Positions 33,482 through 63,787 are shown, counted from the stretch's first letter. The stretch: 64,000 nucleotides of DNA from Thermodesulfobacteriota bacterium (GCA_040757175.1 JBFLXM010000032.1:7448-71447); one strand, 5' to 3'. Notes: generated from the letters alone by a model not told the origin. Program-made: numbers and translations.

Positions 33482-33545
33482 GTAGGGTGGGCACGGCCCA
33501 CCAGCAGACTGCATTCTTAAAAAGGTGGGCCATGCCCACCCTACA
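33482..33545. repeat. Inverted pair of REP hairpins (GTAGGGTGGGCA..GCCCACC family)
   Basis: gtagggtgggcacggcccacc .. ggtgggccatgcccaccctaca. Family members are also at 52881-52903 and 55211-55233. Confidence 0.8.
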
Positions 33546-51820: not shown

Positions 51821-52141
51821 TCAGTTTTCGGCATACTGCACTACTGCCTCTTGCAAAACTTTATCTCGAAAATAACGGCTCAAACATTGAGGGGTGTTGA
51901 GATCTACTTTTCTGCCAAGAATTGCCGATAACTCATCTTCCATGGTGAAAAATGATAAGCCGGGGATATGATCGGGGTCGAATTCCACCAGCACGTCGAT
52001 ATCGCTATCTGCACGGAAATCCGGGCGCAGGACAGACCCAAAGACCGCCAATTTCTTGATATGATACCTCCGGCAAAATTCGGCAATCTTTTCTTCGGGA
52101 AAGGGAACCTGAAGCTTCGATTTCTCGCTGGTCTGTTTCAT
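51821..52141 (-). CDS. Minimal nucleotidyltransferase (MNT-type, HEPN/MNT TA-like), no partner seen
   Basis: GS..DxD motif ([24 protein letters not shown]). No DUF86/HEPN ORF is adjacent. Confidence 0.8.
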
Positions 52142-52880: not shown

Positions 52881-52934
52881 GGTGGGCAGTGCCCACCCTA
52901 CATTTCTGACCCCTGATCCCTGGCCCCTGCCCCC
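52881..52934. repeat. REP hairpin followed by a TGACCCC-type heptamer array
   Basis: ggtgggcagtgcccaccctacat followed by ctgacccctgatccctggcccctgccccc, between ybaB and recR. Confidence 0.85.
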
Positions 52935-55061: not shown

Positions 55062-55154
55062 TGGCGGAGAGAGAGGGATTCGAACCCTCGGAGCACTTAT
55101 TAGGCACTCACACGATTTCCAATCGTGCCCCTTCAGCCTCTCGGGCATCTCTCC
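55062..55154 (-). tRNA. tRNA-Ser (anticodon GGA), class II with a long variable arm, CCA encoded
   Basis: The reverse complement reads GGAGAGATGCCCGAGAGGCTGAAGGGGCACGATTGGAAATCGTGTGAGTGCCTAATAAGTGCTCCGAGGGTTCGAATCCCTCTCTCTCCGCCA. Anticodon arm CACGA-TTGGAAA-TCGTG; T-arm GAGGG-TTCGAAT-CCCTC. Confidence 0.9.
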
Positions 55155-55210
55155 GCAAGGATGAACTTGGATTATCACACGGCGGCACAGGCGTCTCGCC
55201 TGCGCAGTAT

Positions 55211-55543
55211 GGTGGGCCATGCCCACCCTACAACTGCTCTGAAAATGTCCTTCGTAGGGCGCGTCTCACGCGCCATAATGGTGCGTAGGACGCACCCTAC
55301 AACAATTTTCATCCTTCTGGGTGTTCCCTTGGAACATGAATTGCTCGTTCCCAAGCTTGGCTTGGGAACGGTGATTATCCGTCCAAGCTTTGCTTGGACA
55401 CCTTATATTATATACCCGGCTTTAATCCGCTTAACCAGAAAATTGACAATAAAGGGTTGGAGCGCACCAAAATGGCGGGCCAGGCCCGCCCCACACCGCT
55501 GTCCACAAATAACTAAGCAGCGGGCGAGGACGCCCGCCCTACG
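55211..55543. repeat. Cluster of REP-type hairpins from at least four families (BIME-like)
   Basis: The cluster contains seven hairpins: ggtgggccatgcccaccctac (55211-), gtagggcgcgtctcacgcgcc (55254-), ggtgcgtaggacgcaccctac (55280-), gttcccaagcttggcttgggaac (55347-), gtccaagctttgcttggac (55381-), ggcgggccaggcccgcc (55474-) and gcgggcgaggacgcccgccctac (55520-). Confidence 0.8.
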
Positions 55544-55803: not shown

Positions 55804-55835
55804 TGGCGGAGGGGGTGGGATTCGAACCCACGCCA
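55804..55835 (-). other. tRNA 3'-end fragment (T-arm, acceptor 3' strand and CCA): candidate att site of the integrase island
   Basis: The reverse complement reads GGCGTGGGTTCGAATCCCACCCCCTCCGCCA. No matching 5' acceptor strand (GGAGGGG) or anticodon arm exists upstream, and the integrase stop lies 7 nt away. Confidence 0.6.
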
Positions 55836-55841
55836 TAAGCA

Positions 55842-57065
55842 TCATTTATTCTTAAAATCCAATAGCTTGGCTTTCTTATTTTTTGTCTTGGGGCTACTTT
55901 GGGGATAGTCGGGGCGATCCCAGTAAGATTTCAACTTCTCGGTGCAAACTTCTAGATAGCGCGCAGTGGTGCGTGGGTCTTTGTGTCCCATCATTTCCTG
56001 GATGATTTTCAGGTCCACCCCGGCATTAATGGCCTGGGAACCTCCCGAATGCTTGGTTCCTTGATAAAGGCTGATCTTAATCCCTGCTCTGGCGGTAGCA
56101 CGTCTCCAATAGTCTTGAACTGTATTTTCCTTGAGGGGTTCCCCCCGATAGGTAAAGACATAACCGCTCAAGGCCCGGGTGGGAATAGCTTCCATGGCTG
56201 CTCTTACTTCCGGATGTATGGGCAGGGTCCGAATATCCCGGGTCTTAGTATGTTCCCGGAATACCCCTTCGTCCATGGCTGCATCAATTCTAACCAGATT
56301 GCGCTCGAAATTTATCCGGTCCCATTTAAGGGCTCTGGCCTCGTTGGGCCGGCAAGCTTGTCTCATCAAGAAGAGGAAGAGAGCCCGGTAAACCGGATCA
56401 TGTACTTCGGCCAGGATGAGCGCCTGGTCTTCCTCATCGATCCACTTGATTGGGGGAATGACAAATTTTATTACCGGGAACTCAGGAAAGCGTTGAATGT
56501 CCCCAGCGCGCAGAGCATCCCGGAGGATTTTATGAAGCAAGCCAAAGATATTTTTTTTTGTTTTGGCGCTCAAACTCCGGGGTAGCTGGCGGCGAAATTT
56601 TTCAAGCTGCCCGTCTTCAATTTCCCTGATATTCATGCCGCCAAAAAATGGCAGCAAGTGATTGCGGGCATAAGACTCCGCCCCTTTTAAATACGATCTG
56701 GAAATGCCCTCAGGCAAATCAATTTCCTCGGCCCGCCAGGCAAACCAGGTCCGTACATAATTTTCAAATTTCAGCTTATTCAGGTCCCGGCGCACATAAT
56801 TCTTGGGGTCGAAACGGAACTTCCCTTTGCTTTTCTGATCCCGGTCGATCTCGTGACGGATGTGGGTCAACAAGCGGTCAGCCTGTTCCCATGAACTTAA
56901 GGAGTAGCCATCTTCGTCGGAATAGAGTTTGTGCTGCTTTTTCCAATAGAAATCAATATAGTATCGGGTGGGGATGGTTTTGCAGGCGGGACAGGTTAAA
57001 GGCTCTCCCTGGAAACGTCCCTTACACTGCGGACATTTCTCCTTGGTGCGAATGATCCCGAGCAT
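55842..57065 (-). CDS. Tyrosine recombinase / phage-type integrase with an N-terminal Cys4 zinc ribbon
   Basis: C-terminal catalytic region (..GTKHSGGSQAINAGVDLKIIQEMMGHKDPRTTARYLEV, the HxxR..Y pattern). N-terminal CPQCKG..CPACKT. The start could be 57065 or 57101. Confidence 0.9.
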   Translation of the reverse strand: MLGIIRTKEKCPQCKGRFQGEPLTCPACKTIPTRYYIDFYWKKQHKLYSDEDGYSLSSWEQADRLLTHIRHEIDRDQKSKGKFRFDPKNYVRRDLNKLKFENYVRTWFAWRAEEIDLPEGISRSYLKGAESYARNHLLPFFGGMNIREIEDGQLEKFRRQLPRSLSAKTKKNIFGLLHKILRDALRAGDIQRFPEFPVIKFVIPPIKWIDEEDQALILAEVHDPVYRALFLFLMRQACRPNEARALKWDRINFERNLVRIDAAMDEGVFREHTKTRDIRTLPIHPEVRAAMEAIPTRALSGYVFTYRGEPLKENTVQDYWRRATARAGIKISLYQGTKHSGGSQAINAGVDLKIIQEMMGHKDPRTTARYLEVCTEKLKSYWDRPDYPQSSPKTKNKKAKLLDFKNK

Positions 57066-57306
57066 GGAAAGATTATAGGGAAGAGGGTGTTCCAAGTGCA
57101 ACCTTTTTCGTCAAAAGTCCTAACTTAGGTTGAGAGTTGAGGGTCTATTTGGGGGGTCTTTTCCTTGAGTAAGGGGTTACCTCCCACCCCCCCTGCGGTG
57201 CAGGTTTTTGCCCAGCCGATAGGTGTAACTCTCTTACAACGCAGACTAATCGCGATTAATCAAATACGGAAAAGAGTTATGGAAAAGAGGGATAAATGAG
57301 GTGGTG

Positions 57307-58659: not shown

Positions 58660-59121
58660 TTACCTTCTTATCGCCTGCAAAGCGTACTTGGCCAGTTGTT
58701 TGTGCAGGTCGGACTCTTTCGGATCATCAACAAGAGCCTGTAATGCAGGGATGGCTTCGCTTGCCTTATGGCCGATGAGTTCGAGTGTCATTATCGCGTT
58801 CGCACCCATTTCTCCGGCAGGACCACTGCCTTGAGCCGTTGATCTGATGACCTTGACGAGAGATGGAACTGCGGGTGCACCGATCCTGACGAGTGCTTCA
58901 TGCGCACCCTGCGAGATGTTAGACCCGAGTTCGCCAACAGTCTGGGAGATCATCTCGTTGGAGGCATGCTGAATTCGGTAGTTGACGTTCTGGGCAGTGA
59001 TTGAGTCGAAGGCGTCTTCAATCTGCGCGTCTACTTTCTTCCAGGCTATCGATTTCTTCCCCGTACGTGACGAGGCAGAGGTTTCACTTTGTGCAAACAA
59101 ACGTTTCAGCCATGCGAACAT
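58660..59121 (-). CDS. HEAT-repeat protein (153 aa)
   Basis: C-terminal half with HEAT/PBS-lyase-like repeats (AVPSLVKVIRS.., AIPALQALVDDPKESDLHKQLAKYALQAI). The N-terminal MFAWLKRLFAQS tag is shared with the upstream gene. Confidence 0.55.
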   Translation of the reverse strand: MFAWLKRLFAQSETSASSRTGKKSIAWKKVDAQIEDAFDSITAQNVNYRIQHASNEMISQTVGELGSNISQGAHEALVRIGAPAVPSLVKVIRSTAQGSGPAGEMGANAIMTLELIGHKASEAIPALQALVDDPKESDLHKQLAKYALQAIRR

Positions 59122-59145
59122 TTTAGATTCCCCCTTTTGAAAGGC

Positions 59146-59421
59146 TTAGCCTTTCATTTTCAAGAACTGACTCACGCAAGGTTTATGAACATCGACAATG
59201 GTCTCTTTGCCAAAGACAGTTGTCTTGACCGCCTTAGTGTCACTTGCGCGACAGTAGTATTCTCCGCAAAGGCGGCATTTCCTTGCGCCATGGCTGTCAC
59301 TGCCACAGACCTTACATGGTGCGGCATCTAATGCGGCGAATTCGGAGAAGTTGCCCCTGCGTGACCCTGGTTCACTTGAGTCCCGGGAGTCCGCAAAAAG
59401 AAATTTGATCCACCGAAGCAT
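59146..59421 (-). CDS. Small zinc-ribbon protein (91 aa from the ATG at 59421)
   Basis: CKVCGSDSHGARKCRLCGEYYC. An AAGGAGAG RBS lies 7 nt upstream of the ATG at 59421. N-terminal MLRWIKFLFADS tag. Confidence 0.5.
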   Translation of the reverse strand: MLRWIKFLFADSRDSSEPGSRRGNFSEFAALDAAPCKVCGSDSHGARKCRLCGEYYCRASDTKAVKTTVFGKETIVDVHKPCVSQFLKMKG

Positions 59422-59538
59422 TTTAGTCTCTCCTTTCCTTCTTCGAACGTCAGGGGTGAGCAGATGGTGAGCCGCACAGAGAGTCATCGCTTGACTACAC
59501 AGGCTTTAAGGGCGCGTCGTCTACATGGCTTTTTTCGG

Positions 59539-59679
59539 CTACTTCTTCCATGCAATTTTCCGTATAACACCATTGTAACCCCATACGATATCAAGATCAT
59601 CTTCATGTTCCAGTTCCCGAAGAACTCTCGTATATTCTGACTGGATTTCGCTGGCACACCCTGGCAGCACTTCTTTCAA
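59539..59679 (-). CDS. Possible 46-aa ORF (TTG start) between the DUF4062-like and Zn-ribbon genes
   Basis: My translation is (M)KEVLPGCASEIQSEYTRVLRELEHEDDLDIVWGYNGVIRKIAWKK*. The composition is protein-like, but the RBS is weak and the start is non-ATG. Confidence 0.2.
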   Translation of the reverse strand: MKEVLPGCASEIQSEYTRVLRELEHEDDLDIVWGYNGVIRKIAWKK

Positions 59680-59726
59680 GTAATCTTTACAATGTCAGAA
59701 TATGTGATTTATCCAATACTTCCTCT

Positions 59727-60587
59727 TCATTGCTGGGAGCGATTCTGCCATGCCACAAAAATGCGGCCCTCAATTGGCTTAGATTTCTCCGATAGGTCGC
59801 CGGGCTCGGGGATGAAAAAACGGTTTTTGTCAGCTATCTCTAATACAAGGCGGCGAGCGCGAAATTGCGCTTCAAGCTTTGCACGAGTGTATTTCCTCTC
59901 CCAAAAGTACATGACATCGCCTTCCTCGAATCTTAGATGAGGATTGACAATCCAATTTTGAAACATGCCGACGGCGTTTGCAATATCTCTAACCTCATTT
60001 ATCCCTGGAACCTTTCCTGCGACGTTCGGATCGGTCGGCATTTTTTCCGCCTCCGAGACGATGACCGGTTCTGGTGGGGAGAAATACCCGACCTCCCTTT
60101 CAAAGAGTGAGCATAATAGTTCTAGTTGCTTCAGGAGCGATAATTCCAGCTGGGCCATATTTCTGAATACATTGTAAAATTGCCCATCGCCTTCAATCTG
60201 TTGTCTCATCTTCTGAATATCGAGGATGGCCTTATCGATCAAATGAATCGCTACGCGGGCATGTTTAAAGTACACAAGTATATGGCGAGGATTATGGCCT
60301 TCCCTGAAATTATTATAGGCGAAATCGAACTCCTGCTTAGTGAAACGACCAACCTTTTTATGGAAAAGCACAATCATCGCGTCGCATTCAAGTATCTCGG
60401 CGTTGAATCTAGCTTGCACACCGTCCGGTCCAAAAATGAGCAGAAGCTCCTCCCATCGAACTACCTCCAGAAAGAAGCCCTTATCGATGACTGTCGAGTT
60501 CTTTCTCTGAATTACGCGTTCGACCAGATCACGTTCCCCCGCAAGTTCGTTGGACGATGCCAGAAATAATCGCTTCTTAAGAATCAT
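59727..60587 (-). CDS. DUF4062-like (TIR/flavodoxin-like fold) N-terminal domain protein with an unknown C-terminal half
   Basis: RLFLASSNELAGERDLVERVI and ECDAMIVLFHKKVGRFTKQEFDFA parallel the remembered DUF4062 consensus (FISSTF.DL..ER ... CDIFIGIIG.RYG..TE.E). A GAGGAGAA RBS follows a 21-nt gap after the GT2 gene. Confidence 0.5.
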   Translation of the reverse strand: MILKKRLFLASSNELAGERDLVERVIQRKNSTVIDKGFFLEVVRWEELLLIFGPDGVQARFNAEILECDAMIVLFHKKVGRFTKQEFDFAYNNFREGHNPRHILVYFKHARVAIHLIDKAILDIQKMRQQIEGDGQFYNVFRNMAQLELSLLKQLELLCSLFEREVGYFSPPEPVIVSEAEKMPTDPNVAGKVPGINEVRDIANAVGMFQNWIVNPHLRFEEGDVMYFWERKYTRAKLEAQFRARRLVLEIADKNRFFIPEPGDLSEKSKPIEGRIFVAWQNRSQQ

Positions 60588-60608
60588 CGGCTTTTCTCCT
60601 CTTCATAG

Positions 60609-61481
60609 CTACGCCTGGTCAGAGAAACCTGCCGCAATGGCCGGAATCTGCGGCAAGTTGTTTTCTTCGAGGAAGAAGCGAAGCAGACTCCGTCTTCCAG
60701 ACCATGCAGTTGGGAATTTCTGTCTGAAGTAGCGCACATTTCGATCTAAAGTGTCCAGTCGCTCATCCCAATTTGTTGGGTGATCCAGATGGTATGCAGC
60801 CCCATGCTTGCGATGGGGGTAGACGAAGCTCAGTCCGTTAAGATGCAGGCGGTAGGCAAGTTCCAGGTCTTCTTCGCCCCAGCCGAGGAAGCTCTCATCC
60901 CATCCACCGACATCCTCAACTTCATGGCGTTCGATACTTGTGCAGTGGCTTGCACAAAGAACCCAGATATTCGTTTTTTTCCCTCGTAGTCTTCTGGGAA
61001 GCGGCCGTGTGTCGATGCCGCAGTGTTTTGTTACAAACGGACCAAGTCTTGGAAGGTCCTGGGAAATGACCAGCGGTGCGAGGAGGCCAATCGACGCTGT
61101 GTGATCTTGCTCTGGGATGCTGTAGACAGGATATTTGACGACCACCTTACGATGTCTCGCGTGTAGATGGATCGCCGCTCGGATGATGCGAGGCTCAGGG
61201 ACTATATCACCGTCGAGATAAAGGGTCACTTGTCCATGAGCGACTTGATGCCCAAGGTTTCGTGCCATGGCTCGACGACCTGGTTCGCCCTCGCCCAGAC
61301 GGATGTAACGTGCGCCGAATGTTTCGACAATAGGGGCGATGTCTTCGGCGGAGGCGTCATCAACGCAAATGATTTCCAGTCCAGCGCATTCGGACGCGCG
61401 GAGAGCGCGCAAAATCCACGGTAAGACTCGCTGGTTGTTGTGGCATGGAATGATGACTGAGATTGAATGCATGCACATCAC
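60609..61481 (-). CDS. Family 2 glycosyltransferase
   Basis: ISVIIPCHNN..LEIICVDDAS..YLDGD, the GT-A DxD architecture. Confidence 0.85.
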   Translation of the reverse strand: MMCMHSISVIIPCHNNQRVLPWILRALRASECAGLEIICVDDASAEDIAPIVETFGARYIRLGEGEPGRRAMARNLGHQVAHGQVTLYLDGDIVPEPRIIRAAIHLHARHRKVVVKYPVYSIPEQDHTASIGLLAPLVISQDLPRLGPFVTKHCGIDTRPLPRRLRGKKTNIWVLCASHCTSIERHEVEDVGGWDESFLGWGEEDLELAYRLHLNGLSFVYPHRKHGAAYHLDHPTNWDERLDTLDRNVRYFRQKFPTAWSGRRSLLRFFLEENNLPQIPAIAAGFSDQA

Positions 61482-61913: not shown

Positions 61914-62999
61914 ATGAAATTATCTGAACGGGAACTATTCGAACTGGTAGAAGAGGCTCTTTCTTCCTGCCTGGCAAAGGTCCCTTTCCTCAAGATACGA
62001 GATATCGAACAGGAGTCCGCTCAAGAAGCTGCCAGGCCGGATTTTTTAATCACCCTGGAGGTCCCGGCAGGCACCCAAACTTTTGTAGTTGAAGTTAAAA
62101 ACGCCGGTCAGCCACGAGTGGCTAGGGATGCGGTAAATCAACTCCTGCGATTTTCCCAAGCATTTCCCCAAGCTTTTCCTGTCTTCATTGCTCCTTACAT
62201 TTCTCCAAAAGCAGCGGAAATCTGTGAACAGGCAGGAGTCGGATACCTAGACTTTTCCGGCAACTGCCGCCTTTGCTTTCAGGAGGTCTATATTGAAAAA
62301 ACGGGCAACCCCAATATTTTTTCCGAGAAGAGAGACCTGCGTTCGCTCTATTCTCCAAAAGCGGAAAACGTTCTGCGTGTACTCCTGACAACTCCCCTAA
62401 AGGCTTGGAAAATTCAGGAACTGGCCGATGAGGCCGGGGTGAGTGTTGGCCAGGTTGCCAAGGTAAAAAACCTCCTGCTCAACCGTGAGTGCCTCAGCGA
62501 AGCCGATGGTATGGTCCTGTCCAAACCGGAAGAGCTTCTGTCTGAGTGGGCCAAGAATTATAATTTCCGCAAAAACCGGGTGAGAGACTTTTATTCTCTG
62601 AAAAGTGTCTCGGAAATAGAATTCGCTTTGGCCAACTTATGCAAATCAGAGAAGTTGACCTATGCCCTGACGTCCTTCTCCGGAGCAGCCAGGCTGGCTC
62701 CTGCGGTGCGTTATCAGCGCGTTTTTGCCTATTTGGAAGAGACGGAAAAGGATGTGGCCGGCTTACTTAACTTGAAAGAAGTGCCCAGCGGCGCCAATAT
62801 CAGCCTGTTGACCCCCTATGATGAAGGGATTTTTTACGGCAGTAAAGATATTAACGGTATCCGTATCGCTTCCCCCATTCAGATTTATCTTGATCTGAAA
62901 ACTTACCGCGGCCGGGGTGAGGAAGCAGCCGACATGCTTCTTGAGCAGGTGATCAGGAAAAGATGGCAACAAGAACAGATTACAATGAAATTGCTGTAA
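61914..62999 (+). CDS. AbiEi-like antitoxin/regulator with an N-terminal PD-(D/E)xK-like domain
   Basis: N-terminus: ..ARPDFLITLEV..FVVEVKNAG..NQL, a D..EVK nuclease-fold pattern. Middle: wHTH (WKIQELADEAGVSVGQVAKVKNLL). C-terminus: ..GIRIASPIQIYLDLKTYRGRGEEAADMLLEQV, resembling AbiEi C-terminal domains. It overlaps the next gene by 37 nt. Confidence 0.5.
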   Translation: MKLSERELFELVEEALSSCLAKVPFLKIRDIEQESAQEAARPDFLITLEVPAGTQTFVVEVKNAGQPRVARDAVNQLLRFSQAFPQAFPVFIAPYISPKAAEICEQAGVGYLDFSGNCRLCFQEVYIEKTGNPNIFSEKRDLRSLYSPKAENVLRVLLTTPLKAWKIQELADEAGVSVGQVAKVKNLLLNRECLSEADGMVLSKPEELLSEWAKNYNFRKNRVRDFYSLKSVSEIEFALANLCKSEKLTYALTSFSGAARLAPAVRYQRVFAYLEETEKDVAGLLNLKEVPSGANISLLTPYDEGIFYGSKDINGIRIASPIQIYLDLKTYRGRGEEAADMLLEQVIRKRWQQEQITMKLL

Positions 63000-63787
63000 A
63001 AGCAGCCCGGTCGGTGTTACTTGAACTTGCCCACCTCTTGGGGGAATACCGTGAAGATATGGTACTGGTGGGAGGGTGGGTTCCGGAATTTATCTTCGCT
63101 AACAAGGTCAAGCCACACTGCGGCAGCATAGACGTGGATCTCGCCCTGGATCACCGCAAGCTCCAGGAGCAAGGATACAAGTCTATTCAGAAACTCCTCC
63201 TGAGCAGGGGATATGAGCAAGGAAAGCAACCATACATATTTCACAGACGGGTTTTCGTAGAAGACCAGGAGATTATTGTTCAGGTAGATTTGTTAGCCGG
63301 AGAATATGAAGGAACCGGGAAAAGTCACCGCACTCAAAGGATGCAAGATGTCCTGGCCCGCAAAGCCAGAGGATGCGATTTGGCTTTTGATATGGTTATG
63401 GAAGTGCCGATTGAGGGAGAACTTCCAGGGGGCGGCAAGGACTCTGTAACTATCCGGGTGGCTACGATAGTGCCATTTCTAATTATGAAAGGCATGGCTT
63501 TAGAGGACCGCTTGAAAGAAAAGGATTCCTGGGACATTTATTACAGCATAACAAACTATCCCGGTGGACTCGATGGTCTGGTTGAAGTATTCAGACCTTA
63601 TCTGAAACATGGATTGGTCCGGGAGGGATTGGAAAAAATTGCCAAGAAATTCGCAACGGAAAAAGATATAGGTCCGAAATTTGTCGCTGATTTTGAAGAG
63701 ATCACCGACCCGGAAGAACGTGAAATCTTGCAGCGTGACGCTTATGAGCGGGTGAACTACCTTCTGACAAAATTGGGTATCGTATGA
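62963..63787 (+). CDS. AbiEii-like nucleotidyltransferase (type IV TA toxin family)
   Basis: ..MVLVGGWVPEFIF..HCGSIDVDLALDH.. resembles the GG..x..S.DhD nucleotidyltransferase motif of the AbiEii/DUF1814-like family. Its position downstream of an AbiEi-like gene supports the call. Confidence 0.55.
   Translation: MATRTDYNEIAVKAARSVLLELAHLLGEYREDMVLVGGWVPEFIFANKVKPHCGSIDVDLALDHRKLQEQGYKSIQKLLLSRGYEQGKQPYIFHRRVFVEDQEIIVQVDLLAGEYEGTGKSHRTQRMQDVLARKARGCDLAFDMVMEVPIEGELPGGGKDSVTIRVATIVPFLIMKGMALEDRLKEKDSWDIYYSITNYPGGLDGLVEVFRPYLKHGLVREGLEKIAKKFATEKDIGPKFVADFEEITDPEEREILQRDAYERVNYLLTKLGIV

Follow-up and report, generated by a model that had tools for sequence, protein, structure and literature searches.

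The DNA analysed here is a window of 64,000 nucleotides from a Thermodesulfobacteriota bacterium (GCA_040757175.1 JBFLXM010000032.1:7448-71447), and our subject is a group of minus-strand genes at positions 58,660 to 61,481, in which the gene of a family 2 glycosyltransferase (GT2) is directly followed by that of a 286-residue partner protein whose N-terminal domain appears to be related to TIR and DUF4062 domains (Table 1). A preliminary description had proposed that four or five genes at this place, encoding the glycosyltransferase, a DUF4062-like protein, a zinc-ribbon protein, a HEAT protein and possibly a 46-residue open reading frame (ORF), form one operon and perhaps an anti-phage or other conflict system, with glycosylation of nucleic acid or of a nucleotide signal as a conceivable mechanism. 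Our analyses found all four minus-strand ORFs present and showed that the conserved unit consists of two genes, the GT2 gene and then the 286-residue gene.

Table 1. Features of the gene group in the window (positions counted from the first nucleotide of the window).
Feature	Position	Strand	Remark
GT2 (GT-A fold) glycosyltransferase, 287 aa	60609..61472	-	first gene of the conserved pair
286-aa partner protein	59727..60587	-	directly 3' of GT2
TIR-like / DUF4062-like N-terminal domain, residues 1-165	60093..60587	-	candidate catalytic Glu is E86
All-helical C-terminal domain, residues ~166-286	59730..60092	-	candidate sensor / ligand-binding domain
Remnant of deleted 457-aa HEAT-repeat gene	59513..59689	-	contains the "46-aa ORF", 59539-59679
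91-aa Cys/His-rich zinc-finger protein	59146..59421	-	lineage-specific neighbour, outside the conserved module
153-aa HEAT-like protein	58660..59121	-	lineage-specific neighbour, outside the conserved module

Homologues of the 286-residue protein fell into 23 clusters among 5.8 billion, and the surrounding DNA was read for part of them. A GT2 gene lies directly upstream, on the same strand, of 13/13 distinct partner homologues with readable upstream DNA (the window, L001/2, L004, L005/6, L007, the P0011 contig, L008/9, L010, L011-13, L014, L017, L018/23 and L021), which bears out the association of the two genes across genomes that the preliminary description had proposed to look for. Spacing between the two genes ranges from -4 to +78 nt, with a 4-nt overlap being frequent. 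The two proteins also co-diverge, their pairwise identities being correlated at r=0.90 over 28 comparisons, which are non-independent, and between lineages identity amounts to ~55% for the GT2 and ~45% for the partner. The genes 3' of the pair differ in every lineage and include those for TMEM175, PIN, alpha/beta hydrolase, DUF4416 and EF-hand proteins. In addition, two partner copies showed damage. The one in L014 carries a one-base frameshift near its start, and the one in L022 (2896-4571, together with the gene before it) is cut down to its C-terminal half, directly 3' of a retron-type reverse transcriptase gene (PADLOC RT_VI, 3.7e-54) on a contig with no GT2. The L022 copy has the look of a decayed one within a defence island.

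The identification of the first protein as a glycosyltransferase, made in the preliminary description, was supported by a Pfam match to Glycos_transf_2 far above its gathering score (1.5e-16, 61.2 bits vs a cutoff of 23.3), together with a DxD and a C-terminal acidic motif. Further Pfam matches were to Glyco_tranf_2_2 (2.8e-12) and Glyco_transf_7C (1.6e-8), and the nearest PDB relative was the A1 (GT-A) domain of K4 chondroitin polymerase (4.8e-14). The homologues form a tight subfamily of 34 clusters at identities of at least 53%, followed by a gap down to 42%. Because the motifs D87-G-D89, W198-G-E-E-D202 and H228-x-D-H231 are invariant in the 34 close homologues, the GT2 is very probably an active UDP-sugar transferase. 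The protein is a bare, soluble GT-A domain, with no membrane segment and no sensor or regulatory extension. No PADLOC model matched it, and no named NCBIfam family came near its cutoff, the nearest ones, exopolysaccharide EpsD and the mycofactocin glycosyltransferase MftF, scoring far below. Plasmids yielded only generic glycosyltransferases of ~30% identity, and none of the GT2 homologues was fused to a TIR-like domain.

Outside the subfamily, only one outgroup locus was readable. In it (L024 725-5044; also in L025), the gene of the nearest outgroup GT2 (P0208, 40% identity) sits 8 nt 3' of a gene for an 895-residue TIR_2-NACHT-TPR protein, and a Methyltransf_24 gene follows after a gap of 12 nt. 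Together with the pair itself, this operon links the GT2 clade to TIR-superfamily proteins in two architectures. The operon combines an NLR-like immune receptor with two tailoring enzymes of the small-molecule type, in an arrangement that is apparently undescribed.

We modelled the 286-residue partner with AlphaFold2 (AF2) from an alignment of 21 sequences, which gave a predicted local distance difference test (pLDDT) score of 89.5. The model has three parts, an alpha/beta domain at the N-terminus, then a long helix and finally a helical domain at the C-terminus. In the N-terminal domain of the model, DSSP assigned five parallel strands alternating with helices (strands 3-11, 38-44, 70-75, 102-108 and 139-141), which is the TIR-like five-stranded topology of DUF4062 domains, also named NIR; E86 lies at the beginning of the helix that follows strand 3, in its first turn. 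The Foldseek neighbours of the domain were flavodoxin-like proteins, small GTPases and plant TIR domains (4c6r, 7xoz and 7crc among the TIRs), along with phage nucleoside deoxyribosyltransferases and CMP/hydroxymethyl-CMP hydrolase.

Scans of the 286-residue protein against Pfam, NCBIfam, PHROGs and PADLOC returned a single match, PADLOC PDC-S60, which covers residues 5-163 (5.1e-10) and also matched 8/21 orthologues. DUF4062 matched weakly in 15/21 orthologues (best 1.1e-4), NPHP3 in 7 and TIR_2 in 1, and short relatives made up of the domain alone gave matches to DUF4062 (15-24 bits), TIR_2 and NPHP3 in the corresponding stretch. All of these scores lie below the cutoffs, the gathering score of PF13271 (DUF4062) being 24.7 bits. 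A tblastn search of plasmids found the Acaryochloris protein WP_235112701.1, named "DUF4062 domain-containing protein", with 35% identity across 163 residues (pairwise E 3e-30) and a score of 22.5 bits against PF13271; its gene follows LRR and COR genes. Furthermore, a profile search of 1.84 billion representatives collected 6596 proteins at E<0.001, most of which share only the N-terminal domain, located at either end of the protein. Fusions in this wider family (P0027-P0168) involve NACHT/nSTAND, NB-ARC, Roc-COR, FGE-sulfatase, CHAT, kinase, TPR and LRR modules; GUN4 and HATPase-TPR fusions were seen as well.

Across 29 diverse members, F8, A10, S11, R19, N30, W45, Q58, G80, T83, E86 and A90 are invariant. 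The motif around E86, G-x-F-T-x-x-E-F, is a counterpart in kind of the "acidic-SYT" catalytic-Glu motif of DUF4062, and F8 and W45/Q58 are counterparts, in kind and spacing and as compared by description only, of its aromatic and Q/W/E motifs. The spacing from F8 to E86 is 78 residues, close to that of F11 and E87 in Eva01 of the Evangelion system (10.64898/2026.06.25.731849). From the model and the sequence comparisons we place the N-terminal domain in the TIR superfamily, as a divergent clade that is either sister to DUF4062 or at its fringe, and conclude that it is probably catalytic. The DUF4062 assignment of the preliminary description thus holds at the level of the superfamily, where the weak orthologue matches, the 35%-identical RefSeq protein, the TIR topology and the glutamate agree with it, and it does not hold as strict Pfam DUF4062 membership. 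The results indicate a TIR-like domain family of ~6,600 representative proteins that is missed by current Pfam thresholds.

The C-terminal domain (residues ~166-286), modelled alone with AF2, reached a pLDDT of 95.1 and a predicted template modelling score (pTM) of 0.88. It showed no fold match in the PDB (Foldseek best E 2.2, template modelling (TM) score <0.4) and no PDB sequence match in a profile search, and so represents a helical domain, confidently folded in the model, without structural relative. Its invariant residues are N215, L218, G223, D224, R243, L249 and G263. The domain also occurs in two tandem copies in signal-peptide or lipoprotein-like proteins (P0070, P0080, P0112 and L014:8342-9364), in which the polar invariants (N215, D224, R243 and G263-D264-L-S) are also kept. 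This distribution suggests that the domain may work outside the cytoplasm as well, and the polar invariants common to the partner and the exported tandem-copy proteins suggest a putative ligand-binding site rather than a fast-evolving protein sensor. The tandem-domain gene of L014 is located two genes upstream of the GT2 and partner pair of that locus.

The pair was found in metagenome-assembled genomes (MAGs) of Nitrospirota and deltaproteobacteria, and the GT2 subfamily also in an archaeal MAG; with one Nitrospirota MAG the window is identical in sequence. Defence or toxin-antitoxin neighbours were seen in the window, L001, L004, L007, L010, L014, L022 and the P0011 contig, the sample being ~13 loci, many of them on short contigs. 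Specifically, the pair of the window is in an integrase island with an AbiEi/AbiEii-like pair; L004 has NACHT-HEAT, HerA-like and CBASS-type E2 genes; L010 has a type II methyltransferase; L014 has GmrSD and type I restriction-modification (RM) fragments and a TIR-effector-like protein; L022 has the retron reverse transcriptase; and L001, L007 and the P0011 contig have PIN or PemK toxin-antitoxin pairs, DUF6414 and CoiA. An IS110 transposase accompanies L008/9, and the neighbours of L005, L011 and L017 are housekeeping or uninformative ones. The idea of a conflict system, for which the preliminary description had argued partly from the island, gained support from these restriction-modification, retron, NLR-like, CBASS-E2 and toxin-antitoxin genes beside the relatives. 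Relatives of the partner were found neither in IMG/VR nor in GenBank phages, and only one was present in 185,579 species genomes. Such a distribution is typical of a module that is rare, moves horizontally and is inclined to settle in defence islands, as judged from a sample too small for statistics. Among the known and candidate systems of PADLOC-DB v2, only the N-terminal domain found a match, the single-gene PDC-S60.

In L014 (1-3762, 11876-14130), the pair lies between the GmrSD/type I RM fragments and a gene for a 393-residue protein (PADLOC "Effector TIR", 2.2e-10). A gene for a 358-residue protein follows this TIR-like gene; its product was considered as a GT-B glycosyltransferase, a candidate that found neither Pfam nor PDB support and was dropped.

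DUF4062/NIR is common to bacteria and the human vault protein TEP1, and it was recognised as an NAD+-degrading immune domain only in 2026. Three preprints of that year identified it as a TIR-like NAD+ hydrolase (NADase) effector of phage defence and demonstrated this role experimentally in Swarozyc, Evangelion, Avs, Vulcan and Vesta (10.64898/2026.05.01.722283, 10.64898/2026.06.25.731849, 10.64898/2026.09.04.749371). Swarozyc is activated by the phage portal (10.64898/2026.05.01.722283), Evangelion consists of a DUF4062 core and an AUX region (10.64898/2026.06.25.731849), and NIR is found in Avs proteins, in the NIR-HEAT fusion Vulcan and in Vesta (10.64898/2026.09.04.749371). Vesta comprises an alkaline phosphatase and a small NIR protein whose C-terminal domain is uncharacterised; the phosphatase is tightly associated, dispensable and likened to the ligand-clearing phosphatase of Metis (10.64898/2026.09.04.749371). 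The known NIR systems pair the NADase domain with protein sensors or with a phosphatase. The three preprints make no mention of a glycosyltransferase, and our literature search found no description of one in a TIR/NADase defence system and no paper on PDC-S60. For STAND/TIR conflict systems, Kaur et al. (2021; PMC8195603) predicted effectors of family GT4, which has the GT-B fold, from computational analysis only, and proposed that the attached sugars might neutralise the molecules of an invader or present them to lectin-like sensors. According to the preliminary description, no described system is known to have the present combination. That statement is outdated for DUF4062, an established NADase defence domain since 2026, and stands for the GT2 partnership, which is undescribed in the literature searched. 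What is new is best described as an obligate GT2 partner and a novel C-terminal domain on a probable DUF4062/NIR-like defence module, the defence role of DUF4062/NIR itself being already known.

Like Vesta, the pair is a two-gene operon with a tightly associated stand-alone enzyme and a small protein that joins an N-terminal DUF4062-type domain to a C-terminal domain proposed to bind a ligand. However, the enzyme of the pair is an upstream GT2 and that of Vesta an alkaline phosphatase, the C-terminal domain of the pair has a different, unmatched helical fold, and its N-terminal domain scores below the Pfam DUF4062 threshold; moreover, defence and NADase activity of Vesta were demonstrated by experiment, whereas the pair is known from sequence and models alone. 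Swarozyc and Evangelion, with proteins of ~200-300 residues, have an N-terminal TIR-like DUF4062 core that contains an aromatic residue, a Q/W/E motif and a catalytic Glu; behind it come a helical stalk and an auxiliary domain at the C-terminus. The partner appears to be built alike, with putative counterparts of these motifs. Those systems, in contrast, are single genes with fast-diverging AUX sensors that recognise phage proteins, whereas the pair has a highly conserved C-terminal domain, an obligately linked GT2 and a marginal sequence relation to PF13271. A likeness to Vulcan lies in the joint occurrence of a DUF4062-type domain and HEAT repeats, because L010 carries a 457-residue HEAT gene after the pair and the window keeps a remnant of it and an unrelated small HEAT-like gene; yet the HEAT protein is here a separate gene, found in one relative only and deleted in the window, and Vulcan has no GT2. 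As for PDC-S60, its N-terminal ~170 residues match the N-terminal domain of the partner, but it is a single protein of ~906 residues which shares this domain only and has neither a GT2 nor the C-terminal helical domain; relatives of ~900 residues such as P0031 combine the N-terminal domain with a C-terminal FGE-sulfatase domain. Finally, the GT4 systems (PMC8195603) also associate a glycosyltransferase with TIR and STAND-type immunity proteins, but their GT4 enzymes are of the GT-B fold and mostly part of the NTPase polypeptide, whereas the present GT2 has the GT-A fold and is a separate gene.

In view of the gene order, the linkage, the co-divergence, the folds, the motifs, the defence contexts and the sister GT2 beside a TIR-NACHT receptor, the reading that we favour, and to which we give an even chance, is that the GT2 and the 286-residue protein form a mobile two-gene anti-phage abortive-infection module. 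NADase activity, triggering by phage and the role of the GT2 are what we infer from these data. The effector would be the N-terminal TIR-superfamily domain, which once activated would hydrolyse NAD+ by means of the invariant Glu86, and the conserved helical C-terminal domain would serve as the switch, that is, as sensor or regulator. The GT2 would be an accessory enzyme that uses a UDP-sugar to make or remove a small molecule or glyco-tag read by the C-terminal domain, a role that would parallel the accessory phosphatases of Vesta and Metis. An obligate, co-evolving GT2 partner would bring nucleotide-sugar metabolism into the chemistry of NADase immunity, and the sister GT2 beside a classical TIR-NACHT receptor points to the same extension. 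The pair would also offer a compact two-gene system for asking how small-molecule or glyco-ligands control TIR-like effectors.

Several observations weigh against this abortive-infection module. First, the recognition of the N-terminal domain meets with negative or weak results: Pfam yielded nothing for the 286-residue protein of the window at E<=10, the DUF4062 and TIR matches of its family members all stay below gathering scores, the Foldseek matches are to generic flavodoxin-like folds at E ~1e-2 to 1e-4, profile searches of PDB sequences, with the full family and with a wide alignment of the N-terminal domain, found nothing meaningful, and hhalign of the family alignment against one canonical TIR (that of L024) was not significant (probability 0.14). 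Second, the AUX sensor regions of Swarozyc and Evangelion evolve fast, whereas the C-terminal domain of the partner is strongly conserved. Third, two close GT2 homologues, in L015 and L016 (65% and 57% identity), have no partner, the genes around L005 are housekeeping genes, and the absence of partner relatives from phages, IMG/VR and nearly all reference genomes means that no enrichment statistics are possible. Moreover, the present data indicate no acceptor for the GT2, and the family is known here as sequences and models.

A bolder extension of the module, which we hold to be rather unlikely, is that the GT2 adds a step absent from known NADase defence systems. In a tag-and-sense scheme, the GT2 would attach a sugar to an infection-derived molecule, and the C-terminal domain would read this tag and fire the NADase; the domain would then be a new lectin-like or ligand-binding fold that is used also in the exported tandem-repeat proteins. 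In a product-locking scheme, the GT2 would instead glycosylate the ADP-ribose product, so that the NAD+-reconstitution pathways of phages could not rebuild NAD+. If this were true, the L024 operon of TIR-NACHT, GT2 and methyltransferase genes would mark a broader, unrecognised sugar-chemistry class of TIR-superfamily immune systems.

The roles of the two proteins might also be reversed, with the GT2 as the effector that blocks an invader or host macromolecule (DNA, protein or nucleotide) by glycosylating it, and the TIR-like protein as its regulator or sensor. GT-A-fold toxins that glycosylate proteins provide a precedent. The greater conservation of the GT2 relative to its partner (~55% vs 45%), with invariant catalytic motifs, the two GT2 homologues that occur without partner, and the sister GT2 in an operon with TIR-NACHT-TPR and methyltransferase genes all fit such a role, and GT4 effectors fused to STAND NTPases, some also with TIR, have been predicted (Kaur et al., 2021; PMC8195603). 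However, the presence of an invariant Glu86 and of further DUF4062-type motifs speaks for a TIR-like domain that is itself catalytic, and in all DUF4062 systems studied by experiment the part of the effector falls to the NADase. In addition, a bare catalytic domain of 287 residues leaves the GT2 without any extension for sensing or regulation, and no PADLOC model recognises it. We regard the GT2 as effector as improbable.

Less probable still is that the pair belongs to a non-immune tailoring pathway, in which an enzyme like the N-glycosidases or deoxyribosyltransferases and a glycosyltransferase would modify a nucleoside, cofactor or envelope component and lie on mobile DNA by chance. The N-terminal domain does resemble nucleoside 2-deoxyribosyltransferases and CMP/hydroxymethyl-CMP hydrolase in structure, and among named GT2 families EpsD and MftF come nearest, although both score far below cutoff. 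Moreover, housekeeping genes adjoin the pair in L005 and L017, and the C-terminal domain occurs in exported proteins. Nevertheless, no other biosynthetic, transporter or polysaccharide genes are conserved beside the pair, whose neighbours differ from locus to locus, and the GT2 has no membrane segment. Furthermore, the other architectures of the N-terminal domain family are overwhelmingly conflict proteins of the STAND/NLR type, and the patchy, rare occurrence of the pair across phyla is typical of mobile defence genes.

The remaining genes of the group are outside the module. The closest relative of the window locus, L010, shares 91% DNA identity across the GT2 and partner genes and carries an intact gene for a 457-residue HEAT-repeat protein directly after the pair. 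A segment of the window beyond the partner gene (Table 1) matches L010:2812-2988 at 90% identity, and L010:1487-2811 (~1.3 kb) is absent from the window, which has kept the last ~150 nt of the HEAT gene. The 46-residue ORF, which begins with TTG and has no Shine-Dalgarno site, encodes the last residues of the HEAT protein of L010. The ORF is what the deletion of a HEAT-repeat gene has left of its 3' end and no functional gene, so its suggested place as a fifth member of the operon falls away. Beyond the remnant the two loci are unrelated, L010 continuing with a type II DNA methyltransferase gene and the window with the zinc-finger and 153-residue HEAT genes. As the spacer holds the remnant of a deleted gene, the present adjacency of the pair and these two genes is secondary.

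The 91-residue protein has the pattern C36-x2-C39-x9-C49-x2-C52-x4-C57...H80-x2-C83 and a sub-threshold Pfam match to FYVE (0.028); JGI metagenome contigs and the fetched loci yielded no relative. The 153-residue protein, which the preliminary description had called a HEAT-repeat protein, does match HEAT_2 (9.6e-4, 19.8 bits vs a cutoff of 27.7) and HEAT_PBS (3.1e-3, 18.3 vs 20.9), both below the gathering scores. Its relatives amount to 2 clusters in 5.8 billion, itself and one fragment of 113 residues, and neither the HEAT protein of L010 nor any fetched locus is similar to it. PADLOC gave no match for either protein. The two share an N-terminal motif of 12 residues, MxxW[IL]KxLFAxS, which is absent from all other ORFs of the window, and which suggests that their genes may form a small lineage-specific pair of their own.

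That all four proteins, GT2, DUF4062-like, zinc-ribbon and HEAT, act as one system is thus highly improbable: the common strand, short gaps, good Shine-Dalgarno sites, the lack of any terminator-like site found in the 305-nt spacer on the minus strand, the large HEAT-repeat gene right after the pair in L010 and the proven NIR-HEAT fusion of Vulcan, which makes a HEAT partner not implausible in this sub-lineage, speak for it, yet the zinc-finger and 153-residue HEAT genes lie beside the pair in 0/13 other contexts, their products are near-orphans essentially without homologues, the HEAT protein is dissimilar to that of L010 and the adjacency is secondary, so that the lack of co-occurrence has already largely refuted the four-gene operon.

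With regard to gene starts, the ATG at 61472 is a better start of the GT2 than the alternative GTG at 61481 (ORF 60609-61481), because AGGTGA lies 8 nt upstream and the start agrees with the 287-residue NCBI protein and with the N-termini of orthologues, which begin MHSISVIIPCHN. Shine-Dalgarno-like sequences also precede the starts of the 286-, 91- and 153-residue proteins (GAGGAG, AAGGAGAG and AGGGGGA, respectively), in agreement with the good sites noted in the preliminary description, whose gaps of 21 and 24 nt are exact. Its third gap of 240 nt measures 305 nt to the start of the 91-residue gene and 239 nt only if a longer open reading of 113 residues, from 59487, is used; the motif shared with the 153-residue protein supports the 91-residue start.

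The GC content of the gene group is ~0.48, against ~0.60 in the flanking genome. This low-GC stretch begins past a tRNA-Ser(GGA) gene (55062-55154) and a tyrosine integrase gene (55842-57101) and runs into the AbiEi (2.6e-19) and AbiEii-like (weak) pair at 61914-63787, which agrees with the island and AbiE context given in the preliminary description. At 55804-55832, adjoining the stop codon of the integrase, 29 nt repeat the 3' end of the tRNA-Ser(GGA) gene (55062-55090) with 86% identity. This copy is a candidate for an attachment (att) site and for the left boundary of the low-GC island, whose right boundary is beyond the end of the window.

Two further features were observed in the window. 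A palindromic element resembling repetitive extragenic palindromes (REP), GTGGGCnnnGCCCACCCTAC, is present in 7 copies vs 0.39 expected by chance, at positions including 33482-33544, 52882-52901, 55207-55231 and 55475-55494; all copies are in the high-GC host part and 0 inside the island. In addition, a minus-strand ORF of 106 residues just before recR (51821-52141) has a nucleotidyltransferase-type motif and presumably resembles, from a reading of its sequence, the MNT antitoxins of HEPN/MNT pairs.

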